This document shows, piece by piece, positions 6,429-22,119 of a stretch of 32,000 nt of DNA. The stretch is from positions 1-32,000 of the forward strand of contig JAPZAR010000008.1 in NCBI GenBank assembly GCA_027460535.1, read 5' to 3'. Positions within the stretch are counted from its first letter, which is position 1; each line of letters begins with the position of its first letter. The notes beneath the pieces were generated by a model, which worked only from the letters and a program-made list of their open reading frames with translations, was not told where the DNA came from and did not search any database. The translations under genes were made by a program, and so were the position numbers. Origin of the DNA: Candidatus Methanoperedens sp. (lineage in GTDB: Archaea; Halobacteriota; Methanosarcinia; Methanosarcinales; Methanoperedenaceae).

Positions 6429-8642
6429 ATGGACGAAATACAGCTCACTGTTGCAAAAGCATATCCAAACGATTCGGGAAGAGGGATTGCCCGTCTTGAC
6501 CCGCACACATTGATGGTTCTGCAACTTACCCCTGGCGATGTCATAAAGATGGAGGGGAAGAAGAACACGTCAGCAAAAGTATGGCGTGCAGACCGTATAG
6601 ACTGGGACCAGGATATCATTCGTATTGATGGTTTCATAAGGCAGAATGCAGGTGTGGGCATAGGCGACCGTGTAAAAATTAGTAAAGCGGAAGTAAAGAT
6701 AGCTGATAGGGTAGTACTTGCGCCGCCTGAAGGTACCTCAATACAGTTCGGGGGAGAAGCAGAGGAAATGGTAAAGCGGCAGATAATGAAACGCCCGGTC
6801 ACAAAAGGAGATATTATTCCGGTAATGAGCACAATGGCGCACCCCTTCCTCGGGCGCGTGGTAACAGGTCAGACCATTCCGCTGATCGCGATAGAGGCCG
6901 AGCCAGAAGGAATAATTCTGATCACCGAAAGTACAGAGATCAAACTCAGGGAAAAGCCTGTGGTAGTAGATGTGACCGGGACTGGTATAACATATGAGGA
7001 TATAGGTGGTCTCAGTGACGAGATCCAGCGTCTTCGCGAAATGATCGAGCTTCCCATGAAACATCCTGAGGTATTTGAGAAATTGGGTATCGAATCACCC
7101 AAAGGCGTATTGATGTACGGCCCGCCCGGAACAGGCAAGACCCTGATAGCCAGGGCGGTTGCCAACGAATCCGGAGCAAATTTTTTCTCAATCGCCGGCC
7201 CTGAGATCATGAGCAAGTATTACGGTGAGAGCGAGCAGAGGTTACGTGAGCTGTTCGAGCAGGCCAACAAGGATGCCCCTTCCATTATTTTCATAGATGA
7301 ACTGGATTCCATCGCTCCCAAAAGGGAAGAAGTGACCGGTGAAGTGGAACGCAGGGTTGTTGCCCAGCTTCTGACCATGATGGATGGTCTTGAAGAGAGA
7401 GGCCAGGTTGTTGTGATAGGTGCAACGAACCGGATAGATGCGATCGATCCCGCGCTTCGCCGCCCTGGCCGCTTTGACCGCGAGATAGAAATAGGGGTGC
7501 CAGACAGGATGGAGAGGCTTGAGATCCTCCAGATACACACACGAGGCATGCCGCTTTCGAATGAGGTTAAACTTGAGGAAATTGCCGACAGGACCCATGG
7601 GTTCGTTGGCGCTGACATCTCGGCTCTTGCACGAGAGGCCGCAATGAAAGCTCTTCGGAGATATCTTCCCCAGATAAAACTTGATGAAGCTGTACCGCGG
7701 GAGATACTCAACAGCATGCAGGTTACAGGAAGCGATTTCGAGGAAGCGCTAAAAGATGTTGAACCTTCAGCTATGAGGGAAGTGCTGGTTGAGATCCCAA
7801 GAGTGGTCTGGGATGATGCTGGTGGCCTCGATGAGGCTAAGCAGGAGATAATAGAAGCCGTAGAATGGCCTCTTAAAAACTCTGCGAAGTTTGAAAAAAT
7901 GGGTATCCGTCCACCAAAAGGAATTCTGCTTTACGGTCCACCGGGCACGGGCAAGACTCTTCTTGCCAAGGCTGCTGCGAATGAAAGTTCTGCCAATTTC
8001 ATCAGCATCAGGGGTCCGCAGCTCTTGTCAAAATGGGTGGGAGAATCGGAAAAGGCAGTACGTGAGGTATTCAAAAAAGCGCGCCAGGTTGCACCATGCA
8101 TACTCTTCCTCGATGAACTGGATGCCATCGCTCCCATAAGAGGAGTGGACATGGGTTCTAAGTCTTCGGAACGTGTGGTCAACCAGCTACTGACAGAACT
8201 CGATGGCATTGAAGTCCTGAAGAACGTTGTGGTAATAGCTGCAACGAATAGACCCGAGATAGTCGATCCGGCACTTATCCGCTCCGGAAGATTTGACAGA
8301 TTGGTTTTTGTAGGACCGCCCAGCAGGTCGGGCAGGATCGAAATACTCAATATCCATCTTAAGAATATCCCTCTTTCAGATGATGTGGTAGTAGAAGAAT
8401 TGGCGGATCTTACTGATAATTATGTAGGGGCTGACATAGAATCACTGTGCAGGGAAGCAGTAATGCTGGCACTCCGAGAGAATTTTGATACTGAAAAAGT
8501 TGAGATGAAGCATTTCCGGGACTCATTGAAAAAGGTGAGACCTGCACTGGTTGAGGGTATGTTGGAATATTATGAAAAGCTCCAGGAACAATTCAAGGGT
8601 GGAAAGAAACAGGAACAGAAGTCTTATATAGGATATAGATAA
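6429..8642 (+). CDS. cdc48: Cdc48/VCP/p97-type AAA+ ATPase (two AAA domains plus N-domain)
   Basis: 737 aa. N-domain GRGIARLDP; two Walker A motifs GPPGTGKTL (D1 and D2); Walker B IIFIDELD and ILFLDELD; SRH regions [13 protein letters not shown] and [13 protein letters not shown]. Confidence 0.96.
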
Positions 8643-8661
8643 AAAGAAGACGGGAATTTTT

Positions 8662-8925
8662 ATGGCGAAGATACTTGCAAAAAATCTAGCGAATAAGAGG
8701 GTAATGCTCACTGACGGTTCAGAATTCGGAATTGCCACTAACGTGGTAATGGATACTCAAACCGGGGAACTGATATATCTTGTTGTGAAACCCGGCACCA
8801 TGGTGGATACATCGAAATACAAAACGCAGGATAGTTATGTACTGATACCTTTTGAGGCTGTCAGGGCTGCAAAGGATTACGCAATTGTCGATAAAAAGAT
8901 GATAACCGGCACCGATATGGATTGA
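8662..8925 (+). CDS. PRC-barrel domain protein
   Basis: 87 aa. LANKRVMLTDGSEFGIATNVVMDTQTGELIYLVV...VLIPFEAVRAAKDYAIV is the typical single-domain archaeal PRC-barrel pattern. Confidence 0.7.
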   Translation: MAKILAKNLANKRVMLTDGSEFGIATNVVMDTQTGELIYLVVKPGTMVDTSKYKTQDSYVLIPFEAVRAAKDYAIVDKKMITGTDMD

Positions 8926-8936
8926 TTTTATTTTTT
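8926..8936 (+). terminator. Oligo-T archaeal termination signal
   Basis: TTTTATTTTTT lies immediately after the TGA of the PRC-barrel gene. Confidence 0.4.
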
Positions 8937-8959
8937 GACCGATAGTAGAAGGCAGTGTT

Positions 8960-10336
8960 TTGAGCGGTGAAACAAAGACCACAATAATTTGTTCAACTCA
9001 GGACAGGGCCAGCCAGAATATCAAGACCAATCTATTGGCTCTCAAGAAATGGGAGCAGCTAAAATCTAATACTTTTTCTGTTTTTGAATTCAAGAATTTT
9101 CGGCTCGTAGAGATAAATGAACCTCTAATTCACCAGGACAGGCTTGATAAAAGACTATCCGAATGCGGGTTTCCTGCGAATCTCATAATATTTGCATCCA
9201 AGCACAGGAGCAAAGATGGGCGGGCTATTCTAACTGTTCATTCCACAGGTAACGTTAACGAAGCGAAGTTCGGGGGATCGCTAAAGCAACTTGCCGCCGC
9301 CGCTCCGCAGGCCTTGCGTTCTTTACTCCGGTCACTGAAAGTCCTGGTCGCGAACGAGGATTACGAGGTCACTCTTGAGTGCACGCATCATGGACCGAGT
9401 GACATCGATATGCCTTCTGTGTATATTGAGATAGGAAGTAATGAAGACCAGTGGCTTGATGAAGTGGCAGGCAGAATCGTCGCAAACGCTATCCTGATGC
9501 TGAAAGATGGTGACTCTCCAGTGGCTGTGGGCTTCGGGGGCACACACTACGCTCCCAGACAAACAGCCCTTGTCCTTGAAACCGATATCACTTTCGGGCA
9601 CATATTTCCATCGCATGCGCTTTTCGAACTTGATGAGTATATAATACGAGAGGCTTTTTTGAAATCCAAAGCTGATTTTGCCTATTTTGACAGGAAATCC
9701 ATGAAGGCAGAGCAGCGTGAAAAATTGGCTTCAATAATTGAAGGATTGGGATTTGAGGTGCTAAAAGAAAGCGATATAAGGGATATGGAAGGGGTCCCAT
9801 GGCAATTTTGCAAGCAGCTTCGGCAGAAGGTCAAAGAAGTATGCCCAAATGGCCGCCCTATGATCACAAACGGAATAAAATGCGAAATATCATCCTGCCA
9901 GAACTGCATATGCCCAAAGGTAAAAATCGCCCGCATCAATCCCGACCTTTTATCTGAAGCCGAGAAACTCGATAGAGATAGACTTAAAAAATTTCTTTCA
10001 GACCATAATATCGCCTATATCGAATATGAAGACGGGAGATTTGCCCATGTCATAATCGCTCTGGATAGCAACTGCGCAAGGTTAGTGGCAGAAAAATTAA
10101 AGAACGAATGCATAGATATCCTGAAAAAACATTATGATGTAGGGGTCAATAATGGAATATTACAGATAACAGAAAAGAAGTTCAGCCCGGAGCGCGCAAA
10201 ATCCCTGGGAATGTCCATGGGCCCGCTCTTTGGGAGATTAGCTCAGGGTCAATCTGTGATCATAGATGGAAAAACTATAAATCCAGAAATGGTATATGAA
10301 ATAAATAAAAGAACCATTAAATTAGGTTATGACTGA
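8960..10336 (+). CDS. dtdA: D-aminoacyl-tRNA deacylase, archaeal type (DtdA), with a ~180-aa C-terminal extension
   Basis: 458 aa from a TTG start. Residues 1-275 match DtdA (IIFASKHRSKDGRAILTVHSTGN, ECTHHGPSD, VYIEIGS, GFGGTHYAPR, FGHIFP). Residues 276-458 are an extra Cys-rich region. Confidence 0.85.
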   Translation: MSGETKTTIICSTQDRASQNIKTNLLALKKWEQLKSNTFSVFEFKNFRLVEINEPLIHQDRLDKRLSECGFPANLIIFASKHRSKDGRAILTVHSTGNVNEAKFGGSLKQLAAAAPQALRSLLRSLKVLVANEDYEVTLECTHHGPSDIDMPSVYIEIGSNEDQWLDEVAGRIVANAILMLKDGDSPVAVGFGGTHYAPRQTALVLETDITFGHIFPSHALFELDEYIIREAFLKSKADFAYFDRKSMKAEQREKLASIIEGLGFEVLKESDIRDMEGVPWQFCKQLRQKVKEVCPNGRPMITNGIKCEISSCQNCICPKVKIARINPDLLSEAEKLDRDRLKKFLSDHNIAYIEYEDGRFAHVIIALDSNCARLVAEKLKNECIDILKKHYDVGVNNGILQITEKKFSPERAKSLGMSMGPLFGRLAQGQSVIIDGKTINPEMVYEINKRTIKLGYD

Positions 10337-10346
10337 GGGATGAAAC

Positions 10347-11438
10347 ATGGAATCAATAATATCTGAGGCAATCGCACGGGCCGGAGAATCTAAAATTCCT
10401 TCTGTTGGGGAAACAGACGAGGAACTCCTGGCAATCCTGCAAGAATTAAAGACGAATATCGTGGTAATAGGATGCGGAGGATCGGGATCAAACACAATCC
10501 AGAGAATATCTGAAGAAGGAATACTTGGTGCAGATCTGTATGCGCTCAATACTGATGCCCAGCATCTACTGAACATTAAGGTCAAGAAGAAAGTCCTGAT
10601 CGGCCGGAGCAGGACGAGAGGGCTTGGCGCAGGAAGCATACCGCAGATAGGGCAGGATGCTGCCCAGGAATCCAAAGCCCAGATAGAAAAAGTGATAGGA
10701 AATGCAGATATGGTTTTCGTGACCTGCGGACTTGGCGGTGGAACGGGCACAGGATCAGCACCCGTGGTGGCTGAAGTTGCTCGGGATTCCGGAGCTCTCA
10801 CAATTGCTGTTGTAACATTGCCGTTCTCTGTAGAAGGATCTGTGCGTATGGACAATGCCGAAGCTGGTCTTGAGAGGCTACGCGATGTAGTGGATACAGT
10901 GATCGTTGTTCCCAATGATAAATTACTTGAAGTGGTACCGCATCTTCCACTGCAGGCAGCATTTAAGGTATGCGATGAGGTACTCATGCGCGCCGTCAAG
11001 GGAATAACCGAATTGATCACGAAACCCGGTCTTGTCAATCTCGATTTTGCCGACATAAGAGTCATAATGCAAAAAAGCGGTGTGGCCATGATAGGTCTTG
11101 GCGAAGCCGAAGGCGAGAACAAAGCGATAGAATCCGTCCAGAAAGCACTTAGAAGTCCACTCCTGGACGTAGATGTTTCGGGCGCTACTGCCGCTCTCGT
11201 AAATGTCGTTGGCGGTCCTGATATGACCATTGCTGAAGCAGAAAGCGTGGTGAATGAACTTTACACCCGGATCGATCCCAAGGCAAGGCTGATCTGGGGT
11301 GCCATGGTAGACCCGGAACTTGAGCATGTCATACGGACTATGATAGTAGTTACTGGAGTCAAGTCCCCCCAGATCCTTGGAAGGAACACGCAGGGGAATA
11401 TATCCACAGCTAGATATGGAATTGACCTGGTTAAATAA
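10347..11438 (+). CDS. ftsZ: Cell division GTPase FtsZ
   Basis: 363 aa. Tubulin signature [33 protein letters not shown] and the T7-loop region NLDFADI. Confidence 0.97.
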
Positions 11439-11456
11439 GATGCATCGGCCATTTTA

Positions 11457-12212
11457 ATGCATGCGCAGATAAAGGAGATATTTAATTCGATTCAGGGTGA
11501 AGGACTATATGTAGGCGTGCGCCAGGTATTTGTGAGGTTCGAAATGTGCCAGCTGCATTGTGCATATTGCGACACGCCTGAGAGCCGCACGACTTCAGCC
11601 GCCTGCAGCATCGAGGGCACGCCAGGAAAAAGGGATTTTCATTCGTTCAGCAATCCCATGAACAGGGATGATCTTGAGAAAGCAATACGTAAATTATGGT
11701 CCCCTTCAACCAGACACGTATCTTTAACAGGCGGGGAGCCTCTTATCCATTCAGATTTTATCAGGACGCTCAATCTTGAATATCCCTTATACCTTGAGAC
11801 AAATTCCGGTTTTCCGCAAAAGGCCCGGAAATTAAAAGATATTATCGCCATTGCTTCATGCGATATCAAATTGCCTGAACACGACTCAACACAACATTAC
11901 AGCGAGCTGTTGAAGAACGAGCTTGAGACAATATCAATATTTAACGAGACAGCAAAGACCTTCGTGAAAATAGTTGTTCTTCCGGAAACTACAGAACAAT
12001 CGTTAACTTCCGCAGTCGATGGAATTGCCTCGATTGACAATAACATTCCCCTGATACTTCAGCCTGTGACTCAAAAAGCCGAGGGAAGGTATGATCAAAA
12101 CAGCATGGCGAAGACTTCCAGGATGCTGCTTGAGCTGATGGATTTTGCGGGGAAAAAGTTAAAGGATGTGCGTGTCATACCTCAAACGCACACATTTCTG
12201 GGAATGCTCTAA
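11457..12212 (+). CDS. queE: 7-carboxy-7-deazaguanine synthase (radical SAM, QueE)
   Basis: 251 aa. EIFNSIQGEGLYVGVRQVFVRF followed by the cluster motif CQLHCAYCDTPES, and LTGGEPL. These are typical of archaeal QueE in the archaeosine pathway. Confidence 0.8.
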   Translation: MHAQIKEIFNSIQGEGLYVGVRQVFVRFEMCQLHCAYCDTPESRTTSAACSIEGTPGKRDFHSFSNPMNRDDLEKAIRKLWSPSTRHVSLTGGEPLIHSDFIRTLNLEYPLYLETNSGFPQKARKLKDIIAIASCDIKLPEHDSTQHYSELLKNELETISIFNETAKTFVKIVVLPETTEQSLTSAVDGIASIDNNIPLILQPVTQKAEGRYDQNSMAKTSRMLLELMDFAGKKLKDVRVIPQTHTFLGML

Positions 12213-13916: not shown

Positions 13917-14705
13917 TTATTTTTTGCCTATGTAGTACAAACGAATAAAATCCACCTTTATTTTCCCATCTTTTGACTGTCTCTCAATCTCTTCCTTCAC
14001 ACCATTATTAAAACTGGTGATATAATCATCATCAATATCAATGTCGTAGTATTCTCTTCCAGTATATCCATTCGCAGTGCTTGAAAGATATATGTTGAAT
14101 GCATCTTCTGTTGAATAGTAAGTTTCCTCATACTCTACTTCAATTAAAACAGTAGAGAAACCCTGTCCTTCAAAAAAGAGCTTATAGTCATTCTTGGTTG
14201 GAAGGCGAAACCACGGGTCTCTCCAGTGAGAAAAGATAGGTTTAATCTTTTCATTCTGCACAACTTCAGATATAATTCTATCACTCCATGGCACCCAGTT
14301 ATAGGTTCCAGGACAGGCAAGCCCCAATCTACCGGATTTCTTCAATGATCTGAAAATTGCTTTTATTGCCTTGGCCGGATCCCTGAACCACGGCAGTGCA
14401 GAATTACAGAAGGCAATGTCGAATTCGTTATTGTAATCCAAATCTTCAGCCGCGATTTGCCTGAATTCTATCCCCGGATACAATGCTCTAGCCTGTTTAA
14501 TCATGCCATCAGAAATGTCTATACCTATTACTTTTCCGCTTGTGACTTTACTGAGCAAATTCGTAATATGCCCCGGTCCGCAGGCAACATCAATAGCGCT
14601 ATCTGTACTCCCGACTTTTAAGAGATCAAGCAGTTTCAGTGCTGCTTTTTGCTGAACCAGTGATTTTTCTTTATATTGACCTGATATATTATCGAAAGTG
14701 GTCAT
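13917..14705 (-). CDS. Class I SAM-dependent methyltransferase
   Basis: 262 aa. Motif I AIDVACGPGHIT, post-I GIDISDGMI and motif II/III FDIAFCNSALPW...LKKSGRL. The substrate cannot be told from sequence. Confidence 0.8.
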   Translation of the reverse strand: MTTFDNISGQYKEKSLVQQKAALKLLDLLKVGSTDSAIDVACGPGHITNLLSKVTSGKVIGIDISDGMIKQARALYPGIEFRQIAAEDLDYNNEFDIAFCNSALPWFRDPAKAIKAIFRSLKKSGRLGLACPGTYNWVPWSDRIISEVVQNEKIKPIFSHWRDPWFRLPTKNDYKLFFEGQGFSTVLIEVEYEETYYSTEDAFNIYLSSTANGYTGREYYDIDIDDDYITSFNNGVKEEIERQSKDGKIKVDFIRLYYIGKK

Positions 14706-14716
14706 GTTAAGCTACC

Positions 14717-17221
14717 TCACTCAGCCTCCTCCTCTTCCAGCTTCTCCTGCACCGCTTTCTCCTCCCCGCTCTCCTCCTTCGCAAGCGTCGCCACCCCCAC
14801 CACCCTGTCCTTCTCCCCCACATTCATTATCTTCACGCCCTGCGTATTCCTTCCCTGCACGCGAATCCCGCTCACAGGCACGCGGATGATGATGCCGTTC
14901 GAGGTCGTGACCATTATCTCGTCATCTTCATGGACGCTCCTTATGTCAACCACGCTCCCGTTCCTGATGTTAACATCGATAGTTATCACACCCTGGCCGC
15001 CGCGGTTGCTGGTGCGGTATTCCTCAAAGTCTGTGCGCTTCCCGAAGCCGTTCTCTGTCACCGTGAGAAGAGTAGCTCCTCCTTCCACCACTGCCATGCT
15101 CACCACTTCATCCTCGCCCATGAGCCTTACACCTCTGACGCCATAAGCGCCGCGCCCCATGTCGCGCACATCGTTCTCGTTAAAGCGAATCGCTTTTCCA
15201 TGCTTTGTGCCGATGACTGCTTCTTTTGTGCCGTCCGTGAGCTTCACCGATACAAGCTTATCCCCGTCATCAAGAGAAATGGCGATAATGCCTGTCTTTC
15301 TGGGATTTGAGAAATCAGTGAGAGCAGTTTTCTTAGCTGTACCTTTCTTTGTGACCATCAGTAGATAGTGTTTCTCATCAAACTTGCTGATAGGTATATA
15401 CGCGTTGATCTTTTCACCCTGTTCAAGTTGCAGCAGATTGACGATGGCCGTGCCCCGGGCCTGCCTTCCTGCCTCGGGTATCCCATATACTTTCAGCCAG
15501 TAAACCTTGCCTTTATCGGTGAAGAAAAGGAGGTAATCATGAGTATTGCCTATAAAAAGGTCGCTCACGAAATCCTCTTCTTTTGTCTCCATGCCCATCA
15601 CGCCCTTCCCGCCGCGGCGCTGCTGCTTATATGCATCCACTGCGATGCGCTTGATATAACCGCTGTTCGTGATTGTGATGACGTCATCCTCCTTTGGTAT
15701 CAGGTCCTCGGTCACAAGTTCTCCTGTGCTCTCGATGATCTCGGTCCGCCTTTTATCTGCGAATCGTGCCTTGAGGTCTGCAAGTTCTTCTTTTATAAGT
15801 GCAAGTATTTTTATTTCACTTGCAAGGAGTTCTTTGAGCCATTTTATTGTCTTTTGTAGCTCACCGTATTCAGTGTCTATCTTCTCGCGCTCTAAGCCGG
15901 TGAGGCGCTGAAGCCTCATGTCAAGGATTGCCTTTGCCTGTTCAATGCTCAGTTTGAACTTTGCAATTAGACCATCGCGCGCTTCATCAGGTGTATTTGA
16001 AGCTTTTATAAGCTTGATCACTTCATCGATATTATCAAGCGCAATTATCAAACCTTCGAGGATATGGGCACGCTGCTGTGCCTTTTTGAGCTCAAACTGG
16101 CTTCTTCTTATTATTGCATTCTTCCTGTGTGAAATATACTGGACGATTATTTCCTTTAACGGAAGAACAATTGGCCTCCCATCGACAAGTGCAAGGTTGA
16201 TAACGCCAAAAGTGGTCTCAAGCTGGGTATGCGAATACAGCTGGTTCAAAATGATGTTCGCCTGCGCCTGTCTTGATACTTCCATTACGATGCGGATGCC
16301 ATCTTTATCAGATTCATCACGAAGGTCGGTTATCCCCGCAATTTTCTTGTCCCTCACAAGACCTGCAATATCTTCTATCAATTTTGCCTTATTCACCTGA
16401 TAGGGGAGCTCATTGACGATTATTGTTTCCTTGTTCTTTACTTCCTCTATTATTGCCCTGGCACGCATCTTTATCGAGCCACGGCCATTTTGGTAAGCAT
16501 CTCGTATCCCCTGCCGGCCGTAGATGAATCCAGCTGTGGGAAAATCAGGCCCTTTGACTGCGGTCATGAGTTCGTTCCATTCGACAGCAGGATTATCTAT
16601 GACCATAATAATTCCGTCAATAACCTCCCCAAGATTATGAGGCGGCATGTTGGTCGCCATGCCGACGGCGATACCTGTCGAACCGTTAATGAGAAGGTTG
16701 GGAAGCTTACATGGAAGAACTGAAGGCTCTTTTAATGAATCATCGTAGTTGGGTACGAAATCAACGGTCTCTTTGTCGATGTCGCCCAGTATTTCATCTG
16801 CTATTTTTCCGAGTCTGACTTCAGTGTATCGCATCGCTGCGGCGCTGTCGCCGTCGATACTGCCGAAGTTCCCCTGCCCGTCGATAAGCGGATAACGAAG
16901 CGAGAACTCCTGTACCATCCTTACGAGAGAATCGTAAACAGCGATATCACCATGCGGGTGGTATTTACCCAGAACATCTCCCACGATCCTTGCGGATTTC
17001 TTGTATGGTTTGTCATGTGTCATACCCTGCTCGTTCATTGCATACAAAATGCGGCGGTGAACGGGTTTCAAGCCGTCCCTGACATCCGGAAGCGCGCGCC
17101 CCACGATGACGCTCATGGCGTAATCAATGTAGGAGCGCTTCATCTCGTCCTCGATGTTCACCGGGGTGATTTTTTCAACTACAAGTTTCTGCTGGGGGTT
17201 CTTAGGTTCTGGGTCGGTCAT
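14717..17221 (-). CDS. gyrA: DNA gyrase subunit A
   Basis: 834 aa. [27 protein letters not shown], active-site region AAMRYTE, and a beta-pinwheel C-terminal domain with an acidic tail. Confidence 0.98.
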
Positions 17222-17225
17222 GGTA

Positions 17226-17627
17226 TCAGCTCAATTTTGATTTTAATCTGGTTAAAACGAATTCTTTGATTTTCTTGGCATTTTTAAAAGCCAGTTGTGC
17301 CTCTTCAAAAGTAATCTCATAATCTTCTTCTAAAGGATATCTGACTTCGACTGCATATCCCGATAGTTCAGACGCAATATCATAAAAGTCAGTAAATTTA
17401 GAATCGATTTCTTTGCAAATTGAAATCAATTCCTCAAGGTCATGTATTTTTGGTGCTTCTTTTCCTTGAAAAGCAAGAAATCCTTTAAGATATTTTTCTG
17501 CGACCTGCTGGCTGTGAAAACATATTATATCTGTAGGAGGGCTTTGCATTGTGAACAGATATTCCACTGTTATAAGGTCATTATTTGCTTTATTGAACCA
17601 TTTTTTGGCTACATCTTTATTGTCCAT
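17226..17627 (-). CDS. HEPN domain protein (the type paired with a minimal nucleotidyltransferase)
   Basis: 133 aa. WFNKANNDL...[16 protein letters not shown]...IHDLEEL...YAVEVRYP is the HEPN four-helix pattern. It overlaps the MNT gene by 11 nt. No R-x(4-6)-H motif is present. Confidence 0.8.
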
Positions 17628-17949
17628 ATATGACCTTTCCTTTTCTAATGATTGAAGTTACAAAAGCAGCAGAAGCATTTTTCCATTTCTCAACTTCCTG
17701 CGGTGTATAAACGAGAATATCCTTCGGAACCCTGATGTCACGTAGTAATTTTCTTATCCGAACCCCCCTTTTATGCATTGGTTCCTTCGTCGGGAGAATT
17801 ACCAATAAATCCAGGTCGCTGTCTTTTGTCGGGTTTCCATAAGCGTATGAACCAAAAAGGATTATCTTTTCAGGATGGGCTTCGTTAACAATACGGTTTT
17901 TGATTTGCTGGATAAGTTCTTCGGTTATTGGTTGCATGGTTCTGTTCAC
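17617..17949 (-). CDS. Minimal nucleotidyltransferase (MNT, NTP_transf_2)
   Basis: 110 aa. ILFGSYAYGNPTKDSDLDLLVI is the GS-x(n)-DxD pol-beta-type NTase motif. The start is GTG at 17949 or ATG at 17937. Confidence 0.85.
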   Translation of the reverse strand: MNRTMQPITEELIQQIKNRIVNEAHPEKIILFGSYAYGNPTKDSDLDLLVILPTKEPMHKRGVRIRKLLRDIRVPKDILVYTPQEVEKWKNASAAFVTSIIRKGKVIYGQ

Positions 17950-18566
17950 AAAGTTACATGAATATCTTTAATTGGTATTTCTAATTCAAAATAGGTATTA
18001 TATCCCCACGACTTGGAAAGTTGTTTGTCACCAATAAAATCTATTTTTACATCATTAAGACGAATTCTAATAGAATTCTTTTTGCTTTCTTTTTTTAGTG
18101 ATTTTAGTATAGTTATAAAATTTGTATGCAAGGGTTGAAGTTTTGCACTATTCTTACTATGCTGTTGATGAGTTACTTCCATTTCTTCTATTGCTGGAAT
18201 TGGTGTTCCCAACTCATATTCATGACCAGATATATCCTCATAAATTGCACGCATAGTTATTTTTTTTGTTTTAAAATCAAATATGCTGAAGTTTAAAATT
18301 ACAAAAGTGAATTCCAACGACGGAGACGGATTATTATCTTCTGCTTTGATAACTCCCAACATTGAGTTAAATTCGATCATTGACGAGTATTTGTTTAAAT
18401 TCTCGTTACGAATTTCTTTCAACCGTGTTAGTTCTTGTTCCAAATTATTAAGTTGCACTTCTTTTGCAACCAAAGCATTTTCTTTTTTATTTAAATCAAA
18501 ATATTTCTTAAAATAAGAATATGCTCTATAAATAATAGAAATTGGAAATGATGTCCAATCAACCAT
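17946..18566 (-). CDS. Orphan 206-aa protein: predicted coiled coil followed by a probably beta-rich domain
   Basis: The ATG lies 2 nt after the gyrB stop and the TGA abuts the MNT start. The segment KENALVAKEVQLNNLEQELTRLKEIRNENLNKY is coiled-coil-like. I recognise no family motif. The sequence is very AT-rich. Confidence 0.55.
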   Translation of the reverse strand: MVDWTSFPISIIYRAYSYFKKYFDLNKKENALVAKEVQLNNLEQELTRLKEIRNENLNKYSSMIEFNSMLGVIKAEDNNPSPSLEFTFVILNFSIFDFKTKKITMRAIYEDISGHEYELGTPIPAIEEMEVTHQQHSKNSAKLQPLHTNFITILKSLKKESKKNSIRIRLNDVKIDFIGDKQLSKSWGYNTYFELEIPIKDIHVTL

Positions 18567-18568
18567 CT

Positions 18569-20835
<2,267 letters not shown>

Positions 20836-22119
20836 ATGAGAATTTCAGTGATCGGCACAGGCTACGTCGGTACCGTCAGTGCTGCCTGTTTTGCAGAACT
20901 CGGCCATAAAGTGATATGTGTAGATATCGATCAATCTAAAATAGACCATATAAATGCGGGCATCCCGCCTATCTATGAGGATGGACTTTCCGAACTTTTG
21001 AAAAAACATGCCGGAAATAGCTTGACTGCAACATCGGATTACGGTTTTGCTGTTATGAAATCAGATTTATCCTTTATTTGCGTGGGAACTCCATCTGACT
21101 CTTCAGGCAATATCGATCTTGGCATCGTAAGAGCGGCCAGCGCTAGCCTGGGGGATTCTTTGAAAAAGAAGAAGGAGTTCCATGTTGTAGTGGTGAAAAG
21201 CACAGTCGTCCCAGAGACCACAGAAAAGGTGGTTCTCCCAATTATAGAAAAACACTCGGGAAAACGCATTGGTGATTTCGGCATAGCCATGAACCCTGAG
21301 TTCTTGCGCGAAGGAAAAGCGGTGTATGATTTCATGCATCCGGACAAGATAGTTGTGGGTTCGCTTGACAAAAGGTCGGGTGATATGGTCGCTTCCCTTT
21401 ACAGCGGGCTTGATTGCGAGGTAACAAGGACAAACCCGCGCACAGCCGAGATGATAAAATACGCAAATAACGCATTTCTTGCAACCAAAATATCTTTCGC
21501 AAACGAGGTTGGGAATATCTGCAAGGAACTGGGGATCGATACATATGAAGTCATGTCTGCAATCGGTAAGGATTTCAGGATAGGACCGCACTTCCTGAAT
21601 GCGGGAGCCGGGTTTGGAGGTTCATGTTTTCCAAAGGATGTGAAGGCCCTGATAGGCAAGGCAAAAGAGATTGGATATGAACCAGTACTGCTCAGATCTG
21701 TAATTGCAGTAAACGAAGGACAACCTATCCGGATAGTAGAGATATTGAAAAATAAACTCGGGAGGTTGAATGGAAAAAAGATCGCCGTGCTTGGACTTGC
21801 CTTCAAGAACGATACCGATGATATAAGGGAATCAAGGTCTATACCCGTGATAAAAGAACTGCTAGATAATGGTGCAAGGGTTCTTGCCTACGATCCCATG
21901 GCAAATGAGAATATGCGGAGGCTTTTCGGTAGTGTCGAATACCAGCGCTCTGCGGAAGACGCCCTGCGCGGTGCAGACGCATGCCTCATAATGACCGAAT
22001 GGGATGAGTTCAGATCACTTGATAATGAATTTCATATTATGAAAAATAAGCTTGTAGTAGACGGGAGGCATATGATCACCCCCGGAAAAAATATAGAATA
22101 TGTTGGTCTTTGCTGGTAG
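20836..22119 (+). CDS. ugd: UDP-glucose 6-dehydrogenase
   Basis: From the internal Met the protein reads MRISVIGTGYVGTV (Rossmann fold), with NPEFLREG and the catalytic-Cys context GFGGSCFPKDV. The 34-codon upstream extension in the ORF track is AT-rich leader. Confidence 0.9.
   Translation: MRISVIGTGYVGTVSAACFAELGHKVICVDIDQSKIDHINAGIPPIYEDGLSELLKKHAGNSLTATSDYGFAVMKSDLSFICVGTPSDSSGNIDLGIVRAASASLGDSLKKKKEFHVVVVKSTVVPETTEKVVLPIIEKHSGKRIGDFGIAMNPEFLREGKAVYDFMHPDKIVVGSLDKRSGDMVASLYSGLDCEVTRTNPRTAEMIKYANNAFLATKISFANEVGNICKELGIDTYEVMSAIGKDFRIGPHFLNAGAGFGGSCFPKDVKALIGKAKEIGYEPVLLRSVIAVNEGQPIRIVEILKNKLGRLNGKKIAVLGLAFKNDTDDIRESRSIPVIKELLDNGARVLAYDPMANENMRRLFGSVEYQRSAEDALRGADACLIMTEWDEFRSLDNEFHIMKNKLVVDGRHMITPGKNIEYVGLCW

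Follow-up and report, generated by a model that had tools for sequence, protein, structure and literature searches.

A variable array of toxin-antitoxin-type genes occupies the gyrB-gyrA junction of Candidatus Methanoperedens

Introduction

Pairs of genes encoding a minimal nucleotidyltransferase (MNT) and a HEPN domain protein are among the most numerous toxin-antitoxin-type modules of archaea, and the classical PF05168 type is essentially uncharacterised. Toxin-antitoxin pairs can also share a transcription unit with a core gene, as in relA-mazEF of E. coli, where the pair stands at the end of the unit. Here we describe an MNT-HEPN pair that lies, together with a third gene (orf206), between gyrB and gyrA, the genes for the two subunits of DNA gyrase, in a 32,000-nucleotide stretch of Candidatus Methanoperedens sp. 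(GenBank assembly GCA_027460535.1, contig JAPZAR010000008.1, positions 1 to 32,000 of the forward strand), which is referred to as a whole as the window. The closest described systems are the HEPN/MNT (HepT/MntA) type VII systems, represented by SO_3165/3166 of Shewanella, the HEPN-MNT pair of Aphanizomenon and a Legionella system (PMC4621449, PMC7641770, PMC11586414). A second group of HEPN proteins, the AF0298-like members of PF05168, retains the arginine of the HEPN motif, lacks the motif histidine and carries a second histidine between helices 2 and 3, a pattern proposed to form an alternative RNase site (Anantharaman et al. 2013; PMC3710099). We found no experimental activity for this subgroup in the literature. 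As for the location, a 4.7-kb gap between gyrB and gyrA is present in Caldalkalibacillus thermarum (PMC7561548).

Comparison of the window with other gyrB-gyrA loci indicates that its three genes are the local version of an old, genus-wide and reshuffled array of toxin-antitoxin-type genes.

Results

In the window, gyrB, orf206, MNT, HEPN and gyrA follow one another in this order, all on the minus strand. The features of the locus are as follows (coordinates are those of the window unless another locus is named; ORF, open reading frame).

20618-20667, minus strand: block upstream of gyrB with the TATA-like element ATAAGGTATATATGC (20618-20632), candidate promoter of the whole gyrB...gyrA unit
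18569-20476, minus strand: gyrB, 635 aa, no intein (ORF list and GyrB comparisons)
17946-18566, minus strand: orf206, member of a Methanoperedens-specific array family
17617-17949, minus strand: MNT-A, minimal nucleotidyltransferase, predicted antitoxin (Pfam, PADLOC PDC-S09)
17226-17627, minus strand: HEPN-A, classical HEPN domain protein, predicted toxin (PF05168, HEPN-T group)
17222-17234, minus strand: gyrA leader, 13 nt, TTGAGCTGATACC, conserved and Shine-Dalgarno-like
14717-17221, minus strand: gyrA, 834 aa, no intein (ORF list and GyrA comparisons)

A preliminary description, made from this sequence alone, had reported three same-strand ORFs packed between the gyrase genes so tightly that no intergenic room was left for separate signals, and its coordinates, strands and spacings proved exact. 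After the gyrB TAA come 2 nt (AG) and the orf206 ATG; the TGA of orf206 shares the letters GTGA with a GTG start of MNT-A (17949), whose first ATG lies 8 nt farther on (17937) and, as in orthologues, is the likely true start (MQPIT...); the MNT-A and HEPN-A reading frames share 11 nt; and the HEPN-A TGA is followed by TACC (4 nt) and then by the gyrA ATG. The sharp contrast in composition was likewise reproduced, with 19/60 G+C at 18001-18060 in the cassette versus 35/60 at 15001-15060 in gyrA, and with a G+C content of 0.326 for the cassette versus 0.492 for gyrA and 0.485 for gyrB. G+C at third codon positions (GC3) is also lower, at 0.22 in orf206, 0.38 in MNT and 0.27 in HEPN, compared with 0.56 in the gyrase genes and 0.35-0.55 in the other window genes.

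To place this arrangement, loci were gathered from one genome per species, from contigs with orf206 homologues, from contigs with HEPN homologues and from a metagenome scan; most come from metagenome-assembled genomes (MAGs), and those other than the window are designated L001, L002 and so on. Compared with Candidatus Methanoperedens and Methanoperedenaceae MAGs, the window GyrB shows 82-99% identity (89-99% for Methanoperedens MAGs), and its GyrA is 87-95% identical to Methanoperedens GyrA. An array of 649-5803 bp lies between gyrB and gyrA in all 16 complete Methanoperedens loci, and every partial locus that reaches the junction (L004, L091, L092, L093) is filled as well. Among the matches listed from the metagenome scan, which was made with the GyrA N-terminus, there were at least four loci, and the three that belong to Methanoperedens are all filled. 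In the outgroups (Methanocomedens, Methanomethylovorans, Methanocellaceae, Methanomassiliicoccales, haloarchaea and many bacteria) the two genes nearly touch: 4-90 nt separate their aligned ends and, where the junction was read, the gyrB stop precedes the gyrA ATG by 2-12 nt (e.g., TGA-gacg-ATG and TGA-gc-ATG). An empty site of this kind, which the preliminary description had proposed to seek in related genomes, exists in other genera only; none was found within Methanoperedens among the 16 complete loci and the partial loci at the junction. The occupied junction looks fixed within the genus.

The junction is also filled in some other archaea. In L041, a different archaeal lineage (labelled as a Methanobacteriota MAG) whose GyrB is 69% identical and contains an intein, an unrelated toxin-antitoxin pair, a MazE/AbrB-type antitoxin gene and a PIN-domain toxin gene, lies on the same strand between gyrB and gyrA (L041:6510-7132), which looks like an independent use of the site. 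Gaps with same-strand genes occur in DPANN genomes assigned to Pacearchaeota, Nanoarchaeia and Woesearchaeota (L061:9900-11583, L062:9895-10536, L072:9894-10502), where the genes resemble, by eye, those of HAD-type hydrolases and HD-domain proteins. Evidently, the gyrBA junction tolerates insertions in several archaeal lineages.

Within Methanoperedens each array is a mosaic drawn from at least 11 cassette types (~67 genes in all), comprising four types of MNT-HEPN pair (A-D; MNT types A-C are 32-42% identical to one another), the orf206 family, a TPR protein, a helicase-HNH protein and several unknowns (210 aa, 172+89 aa and 185 aa, plus a 289-aa protein with a PD...ESK motif). The contents of seven arrays illustrate this variety.

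Window: orf206, MNT-A, HEPN-A
L001: MNT-B, HEPN-B, MNT-A, HEPN-A
L002: orf210, MNT-C, HEPN-C
L003: TPR, MNT-A, HEPN-A
L087: orf206, MNT-A, orf172, orf89, MNT-C, HEPN-C
L096 (3.3-Mb M. nitroreducens genome): MNT-A, truncated HEPN-A
L100: TPR, MNT-D, HEPN-D, orf206-like, MNT-A, HEPN-A

No cassette is universal, given that L002 lacks MNT-A and HEPN-A and that orf206 is missing from five arrays; at least one intact MNT gene is present in 16/16 arrays. The relative order of the cassettes is broadly kept (orf206, B, TPR, A, C), which suggests an ancestral multi-cassette array followed by differential loss. Every recognisable array gene lies on the gyrBA strand, with no reverse-strand homologue of any of the at least 11 types, and junctions are typically -11 to +20 nt; if the cassette types are taken as independent, orientation this uniform would arise by chance with P ~5e-4. 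According to the preliminary description, an old fixed arrangement would have shown the same three genes everywhere with host-like composition. Instead, content varies and G+C is 0.32-0.39 in every complete array measured, so that low G+C is a property of the gene pool and not the mark of a recent acquisition.

The additional cargo is diverse. The TPR protein (~235-242 aa), with 69-90% identity from array to array, recurs in several loci (L003:9901-10629, L006:2754-3458, L090:1090-1806, L094:5209-5925, L097:3967-4677, L100:2346-3062, L101:4777-5493); in L006 and L094 its gene directly follows MNT-B, in the slot that HEPN-B occupies in L001, with a 4-nt overlap in L006. In L097, where the gap reaches 5.8 kb, a 907-aa SNF2/DEAD-box helicase with a C-terminal HNH domain (L097:5839-8562), preceded by a 108-aa ORF, lies between HEPN-A and MNT-C and resembles the cargo of defence islands. 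The first slot holds a 289-aa protein in L094 (L094:4024-4893), whose IPDLVVKD...LILESKF is suggestive of a PD-(D/E)xK nuclease, and a 210-aa protein in L002 (L002:9916-10548). Neither has a homologue in the other fetched loci or a match in Pfam or PADLOC, and searches of the same two resources with orf206 and the remaining unknown cargo also gave no matches.

The foreign origin that the preliminary description had read from composition can be separated into two questions, and the answers differ. As a statement about individual alleles it holds, since parts of the window are closest to different genomes. Relative to L081, window gyrB has a synonymous divergence (dS) of 0.22 and 92-98% nucleotide identity runs through the whole gene into the first half of gyrA, whereas orf206 (dS 1.0, 56% amino acid identity) and MNT-A (dS 1.06) are far more divergent, and L081 has MNT-C and lacks HEPN-A. 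Relative to L001 the relation is reversed, with MNT-A/HEPN-A at dS 0.25/0.16 (95-96% nucleotide identity) and gyrB at dS 1.28 (~80%), while L084 has the closest orf206 (dS 0.23) but a distant MNT-A (dS 1.19). This indicates that cassettes were exchanged between lineages independently of the flanking gyrase genes, most plausibly by homologous recombination through conserved gyrase sequences. The mosaic pattern recurs in independent assemblies. As a statement about a recent insertion into the gyrBA operon of the window genome alone, a foreign selfish cassette would agree with this mobility of alleles and with G+C (0.33) and GC3 (0.22-0.38) values that are the lowest in the window. Nevertheless, such an insertion is highly improbable and largely refuted by the comparative data: all 16 complete loci are filled, orthologous cassettes are present in all Methanoperedens loci examined, synonymous sites are saturated (dS > 1) between many pairs, low G+C is common to the complete arrays measured, and neither homologues of orf206 or HEPN-A on viral contigs nor an integrase, a transposase or flanking repeats were found. 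Specifically, a Pfam scan of the window revealed no integrase or transposase, the arrays contained no integrase, and searches for attC-like or target-site repeats around the cassette returned chance-level matches only. An integron or other site-specific cassette array was considered and rejected because there is no integrase and because spacings of -11 to +20 nt are too short for attC sites.

Inteins are present in gyrB, in gyrA or in both genes of many Methanoperedens relatives (L084:1769-5998 and 7975-12039; L003:11348-15466; L006:29-2419; L096:2285-4621; L089:3596-5989; L101:1400-3991; L097:837-3227 and 9010-10396, the latter cut by the locus end), and window gyrB and gyrA have none. For example, the L084 GyrB is 1409 aa long with Intein_splicing and LAGLIDADG domains, and the GyrA proteins of L084 and L003 are ~1350-1370 aa. 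Together with the array, these inteins mean that two kinds of selfish elements cluster at the gyrBA locus; that gene conversion associated with intein homing contributes to the exchange of cassettes is a speculation.

The recognition of a toxin-antitoxin-type MNT-HEPN module inside the gyrBA unit, already made in the preliminary description, agrees with the Pfam domains of both proteins. MNT-A matches Polbeta/NTP_transf_2 (PF18765/PF01909, E~1e-12) and has the pol-beta motif hG[GS]x9-13Dh[DE]h in the form FGSYAYGNPTKDSDLDLLVI, whose G29, S30, D41 and D43 are shared by all 14 array MNTs compared, partnerless ones included. HEPN-A matches PF05168 (E=3e-25) and no other family, and its predicted structure (pLDDT 92) is an all-helical bundle. 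The MNT gene lies upstream of, adjacent to and co-oriented with the HEPN gene in the window and in all array pairs. In gene order, MNT motif and HEPN fold, MNT-A/HEPN-A is therefore an MNT-HEPN module in the broad sense. In the HepT/MntA type VII systems, a DUF86 HEPN RNase is neutralised by AMPylation, and the modified tyrosine lies in the motif RX4HXY. Assignment to these systems was nonetheless dropped, because HEPN-A is not a DUF86/PF01934 protein, has R96-Y97-P98-L-E-E-D-Y in place of the canonical Rx4-6H motif, none of the positions 4-6 residues past R96 being a conserved histidine, and matches HepT structures weakly (7ae6, 7ae8 and 7ae9; TM-score (TM) 0.35-0.50, E>0.1). R96-Y97 and H62 do not vary in any of 28 homologues, the most distant of them at 36% identity, and P98 hardly varies; H62 lies in the loop between helices 32-53 and 64-72 of the model. 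The best structural matches found with Foldseek are TT1696 (1ufb, TM 0.79-0.83), followed by the sacsin HEPN domain (TM 0.7) and AF_0298. HEPN-A thus fits the AF0298/TT1696-like PF05168 group with an alternative active site, in which the arginine is kept, the motif histidine is absent and H62 is present. By its position beside R96, Y97 is a candidate nucleotidylation site.

Members of the HEPN-A clade (at least 57% identity) are all at the gyrB-gyrA site where their context is resolved, and the next relatives (47-51%) are elsewhere. One distant MNT-HEPN pair (HEPN 51% identical; L098:4697-5399) is co-directional within a molybdenum-cofactor/molybdate cluster, where the HEPN stop is followed immediately by the first base of the next gene; MNT-HEPN pairs embedded in operons may be common.

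All three window genes are under purifying selection. The ratio of nonsynonymous to synonymous substitution rates (dN/dS) is 0.05-0.18 for MNT-A and 0.11-0.20 for HEPN-A, compared with 0.03-0.05 for gyrB and 0.04-0.06 for gyrA; values of 0.31-0.57 for orf206 indicate a real but fast-evolving protein. The two partners of the modules are lost unequally. Across modules A-D there are 15 cases with intact MNT and HEPN, 11 with MNT and a missing or truncated HEPN (probably ~8 independent events), 3-4 in which both were lost and none with an intact HEPN without MNT. Retention of MNT with loss of HEPN, never the reverse, would be expected of a toxin (HEPN) and its antitoxin (MNT), and it suits the idea of a selfish element that the preliminary description had raised.

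Remnants of former cassettes are preserved in several arrays. The 3' end of HEPN-C (aaaatttaacttat) has been left just upstream of the gyrA leader in L006, L081, L084 and L085, a 49-aa HEPN-A stub is present in L081, and 40-41-aa HEPN-C stubs are present in L084 and L097. These remnants show the tight HEPN-A/gyrA junction of the window to be a deletion product; the stop codon of window HEPN-A lies inside the conserved gyrA leader. In addition, within the array of L025, just after a truncated HEPN-B, the last ~65 nt of gyrB recur together with the start of the orf206-like gene (L025:1754-1845; 83% identity to window 18631-18540). This duplicate resembles a scar left when two array types were joined by illegitimate or unequal recombination.

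In an alignment of the region upstream of gyrB from 10 Methanoperedens loci, 20618-20667 is the sole strongly conserved block; it includes a TATA-like element ~145 nt before the ATG, has a single exact match in the window and is a candidate promoter for the whole gyrB...gyrA unit. It lies in a divergent intergenic region (20477-20733, G+C ~0.28) between gyrB and a UDP-glucose/GDP-mannose dehydrogenase gene (20734-22119, plus strand). The gene upstream of gyrB varies among Methanoperedens loci, and synteny ends just upstream of the block. Upstream of MNT-A, no motif is conserved beyond the 3' end of whichever gene precedes it. Directly before the gyrA ATG, GAGCTGATA is present in 11 of 14 aligned Methanoperedens loci, whatever cassette precedes; L084 and L085 differ by one substitution (GAGATGATA), and L090 retains TGATACC alone. 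The window leader has a single match in the window and carries TGA stops in two frames. Of the 11 bases in GAGCTGATACC, nine pair with the 3' end of archaeal 16S rRNA, and because of this complementarity the leader is probably the gyrA ribosome-binding site. The 3' end of gyrB (GGATGTG-stop) is likewise Shine-Dalgarno-like. The idea that the leader is a duplicated gyrB 3' end was dropped, since ~7/15 positions match by eye, which is unconvincing.

Strict co-orientation, the lack of a conserved motif before MNT-A and a conserved candidate promoter block only before gyrB make a single gyrB...gyrA transcript the best-supported reading, which we infer from sequence features. Alternatively, the cassettes and gyrA could each have a promoter within the upstream coding sequence, in which case the tight spacing would reflect compaction and gyrA would not depend on read-through. 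An archaeal promoter takes up only ~30 nt of AT-rich sequence, and many archaeal mRNAs have a short leader or none. The cassette is 67% A+T, several arrays contain T5-T7 runs, and TTTAA-type stretches occur, by eye, 22-36 nt upstream of gyrA in the loci checked. However, the sequence upstream of MNT-A and gyrA varies with the neighbouring cassette; its sole conserved piece, the 13-nt leader, is too near the ATG for a TATA box or B recognition element (BRE); and TATA-like octamers in the cassette are at the level of chance (3 versus 2.7 +/- 1.9 expected), with none 25-40 nt before a start codon and none in the 480 nt upstream of gyrA. Finally, without read-through dependence or tolerance, it is difficult to account for at least 11 cassette types that all share one orientation. 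We consider separate promoters unlikely. Bacterial-type promoter and terminator models say little about an archaeon; a scan with them found no terminator-like hairpin on the coding strand.

The preliminary description had called orf206 an orphan. It belongs instead to a family tied to the gyrB-gyrA site, with homologues in other Methanoperedens genomes. A word-indexed search of 5.8 billion proteins returned 7 clusters, all from Methanoperedens and 45-87% identical, and a profile search of 1.8 billion representatives returned 26 relatives, 18 of them with E<1e-10. All 11 members with resolved context (8 protein look-ups, L025, L097 and the window) are in an array; six relatives start 2 nt past the gyrB stop, two start at 9-11 nt, and those of L025 and L100 lie deeper in the array. 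One remote relative (E=2e-8, partial match) is not beside gyrase, and scans of viral contigs with orf206 and HEPN found no relatives. The stop + 2 nt + ATG spacing of first-slot genes has the same geometry as the outgroup gyrB-gyrA junction. The AlphaFold model (pLDDT 78) has an N-terminal hydrophobic stretch, a long helix (9-58) and a beta-sandwich (64-198), for which Foldseek found generic sandwiches only (ApaG, the TMEM106B luminal domain, AF_0446 and LEA14-type proteins; E~5e-5, TM~0.5), and no Pfam family scored above threshold. The protein is probably a membrane-anchored beta-sandwich.

Outside this locus, the window carries core chromosomal genes of an ordinary kind (CDC48, FtsZ, D-aminoacyl-tRNA deacylase and nucleotide-sugar genes). 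No second toxin-antitoxin pair besides MNT-A/HEPN-A was found in the window, and Rfam and tRNA scans of it gave no matches. A class I S-adenosylmethionine-dependent methyltransferase gene (13917-14705, minus strand) begins 11 nt past the gyrA stop, and the transcription unit may extend beyond gyrA into it. In L001, ~950 nt of extra sequence lie between gyrA and the orthologous gene (92% identical).

Discussion

We regard it as fairly likely that a toxin-antitoxin/defence islet became fixed in the gyrBA operon at the base of Methanoperedens, is expressed by read-through, is kept by addiction and by its essential flanks, and was diversified by deletion and allelic exchange. In this scenario an ancestral tight gyrB-gyrA junction would have been opened in the Methanoperedens lineage and filled by up to three or four MNT-HEPN modules and variable cargo. 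HEPN-A would be the toxin, presumably an RNase using an alternative H62/R96 site, and MNT-A the antitoxin, presumably nucleotidylating HEPN with Y97 as a candidate target. The gene that usually takes the first slot, orf206, would copy the ancestral gyrB-gyrA coupling junction in its stop + 2 nt + ATG spacing. A single gyrB...gyrA message would start at the conserved putative promoter that precedes gyrB, with translational coupling at every junction and re-initiation at gyrA from the Shine-Dalgarno-like leader. The array would persist because toxins make loss of the antitoxin costly and because deletions that overshoot hit essential genes, consistent with the absence of an empty allele among the relatives examined. 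Diversification would proceed through deletions inside the array and through cassettes swapped between lineages by homologous recombination, for which the conserved gyrase genes would act as arms. What the comparison shows is the anatomy of the locus, its conserved position, its mosaic make-up, purifying selection and the unequal loss of MNT and HEPN; what we infer is toxicity, nucleotidylation, co-transcription and the reasons for persistence.

Several points weigh against this scenario. The toxicity of HEPN-A, a PF05168 protein without Rx4-6H, is unproven; to our knowledge, all experimentally proven HEPN toxins have that motif. The tallies of losses and cassette acquisitions lack phylogenetic independence, and assembly chimeras could add to the apparent mosaicism. 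With respect to read-through, AT-rich coding DNA could hide archaeal promoters. Oligo-T runs are possible archaeal terminators, and sense-strand runs of T5 or longer are not depleted across the arrays (49 versus 54.6 +/- 6.2 in shuffles), with T6-T7 runs in some; in the window alone they are mildly low (1 versus 4.6 +/- 1.7). Finally, orphan MNT-A copies (L081, L087) are strongly constrained, with dN/dS of 0.05-0.08, which pure addiction leaves unexplained and which makes some retained function likely.

This constraint on orphans, in which the catalytic residues are invariant, is also what would be expected if the array were a domesticated, gyrase-linked module, for example one in which MNT modifies a gyrase subunit or some other target by nucleotidylation, in which the B:A ratio is set by HEPN trimming the gyrBA message, or in which growth arrest is tied to topology stress through the gyrase promoter. 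Occupation of the site since before the genus diversified, an intact MNT in every complete array and the restriction of strongly similar orf206-family members to the gyrB-gyrA site point in the same direction, and nucleotidylation of gyrase has a precedent in Fic-type toxins, which adenylylate GyrB. A partnership with gyrase is hard to reconcile, however, with the lack of a universal cassette and the repeated truncation of HEPN, with helicase-HNH, TPR and PD-(D/E)xK-like cargo that looks like defence-island content, and with other genera that run gyrase without an insert; in addition, the MazE/AbrB-PIN pair in the same site of L041 suggests a permissive site rather than a specific partnership. 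We therefore doubt that the array has been domesticated in this way. A further reading, which we judge to be quite unlikely, is that the junction is a dedicated docking site with cargo expressed solely through the gyrase promoter. If this promoter is relaxation-inducible, like its bacterial counterparts, the doses of toxin, antitoxin and defence proteins would follow supercoiling, giving a topology-coupled switch for dormancy or abortive defence, for example against viruses or Borgs, which are large extrachromosomal elements of these archaea; orf206 and the persistent orphan MNTs would be functional parts of such a switch.

The gyrB-gyrA site of Methanoperedens amounts to a natural experiment, in which one position can be followed through dozens of lineages with repeated loss of the toxin, retention of the antitoxin and exchange of cassettes. 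It provides comparative evidence on which partner is the toxin, as well as a case of accessory genes that are hard to lose because they are lodged between the genes for the subunits of an essential enzyme. Since gyrB and gyrA serve as phylogenetic markers, it also matters that in Methanoperedens recombination breakpoints lie at or inside both genes. If it is true that the gyrase promoter drives the array, coupling of toxin-antitoxin dosage to archaeal DNA topology becomes testable.

Neither toxin-antitoxin genes inside a gyrBA operon nor this Methanoperedens locus was found described in the searchable literature. That toxin-antitoxin or defence cargo varies at a fixed site flanked by core genes is a known theme; what is apparently undescribed is an operon-packed, strictly co-oriented toxin-antitoxin array, genus-wide in its distribution, that separates the two subunit genes of an essential enzyme and has a lineage-specific gene family bound to its site. 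As in HepT/MntA systems, the MNT gene lies upstream of and overlaps the HEPN gene, the G-S...D-x-D motif is intact, a tyrosine stands beside the catalytic arginine, and the comparative signature at the array is toxin-like for HEPN and antitoxin-like for MNT. Unlike HepT, HEPN-A belongs to PF05168 and not to DUF86, lacks Rx4-6H and matches the experimentally studied HepT toxins at a TM of only ~0.45-0.5, and the window pair lies inside an essential operon without a promoter region of its own. It resembles the AF0298/TT1696 type (PMC3710099) in its PF05168 match, a TM of 0.8 to TT1696, the retained arginine, the absent motif histidine and H62, but the gyrB-gyrA location of the window pair is specific to Methanoperedens.

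With defence and toxin-antitoxin hotspots the array shares a fixed position between conserved genes, variable cargo, low G+C and the exchange of alleles by recombination through conserved flanks. It differs from defence hotspots in being flanked by the genes for both subunits of a single essential enzyme, within one operon, and in that its cargo is all co-oriented, with operon-like spacing and no integrase or mobile-element backbone. Like relA-mazEF, it appears to be a case of a chromosomal toxin-antitoxin pair that shares a unit with a core gene; here, in contrast, the essential gyrA is downstream of the cassettes, such that polarity would be lethal. Finally, DPANN archaea and Caldalkalibacillus thermarum likewise demonstrate that the gyrB-gyrA junction can be opened and filled, but with inserts of a housekeeping type (HAD, HD, transport), whereas a toxin-antitoxin pair occupies the junction in Methanoperedens and, besides it, in L041 alone.

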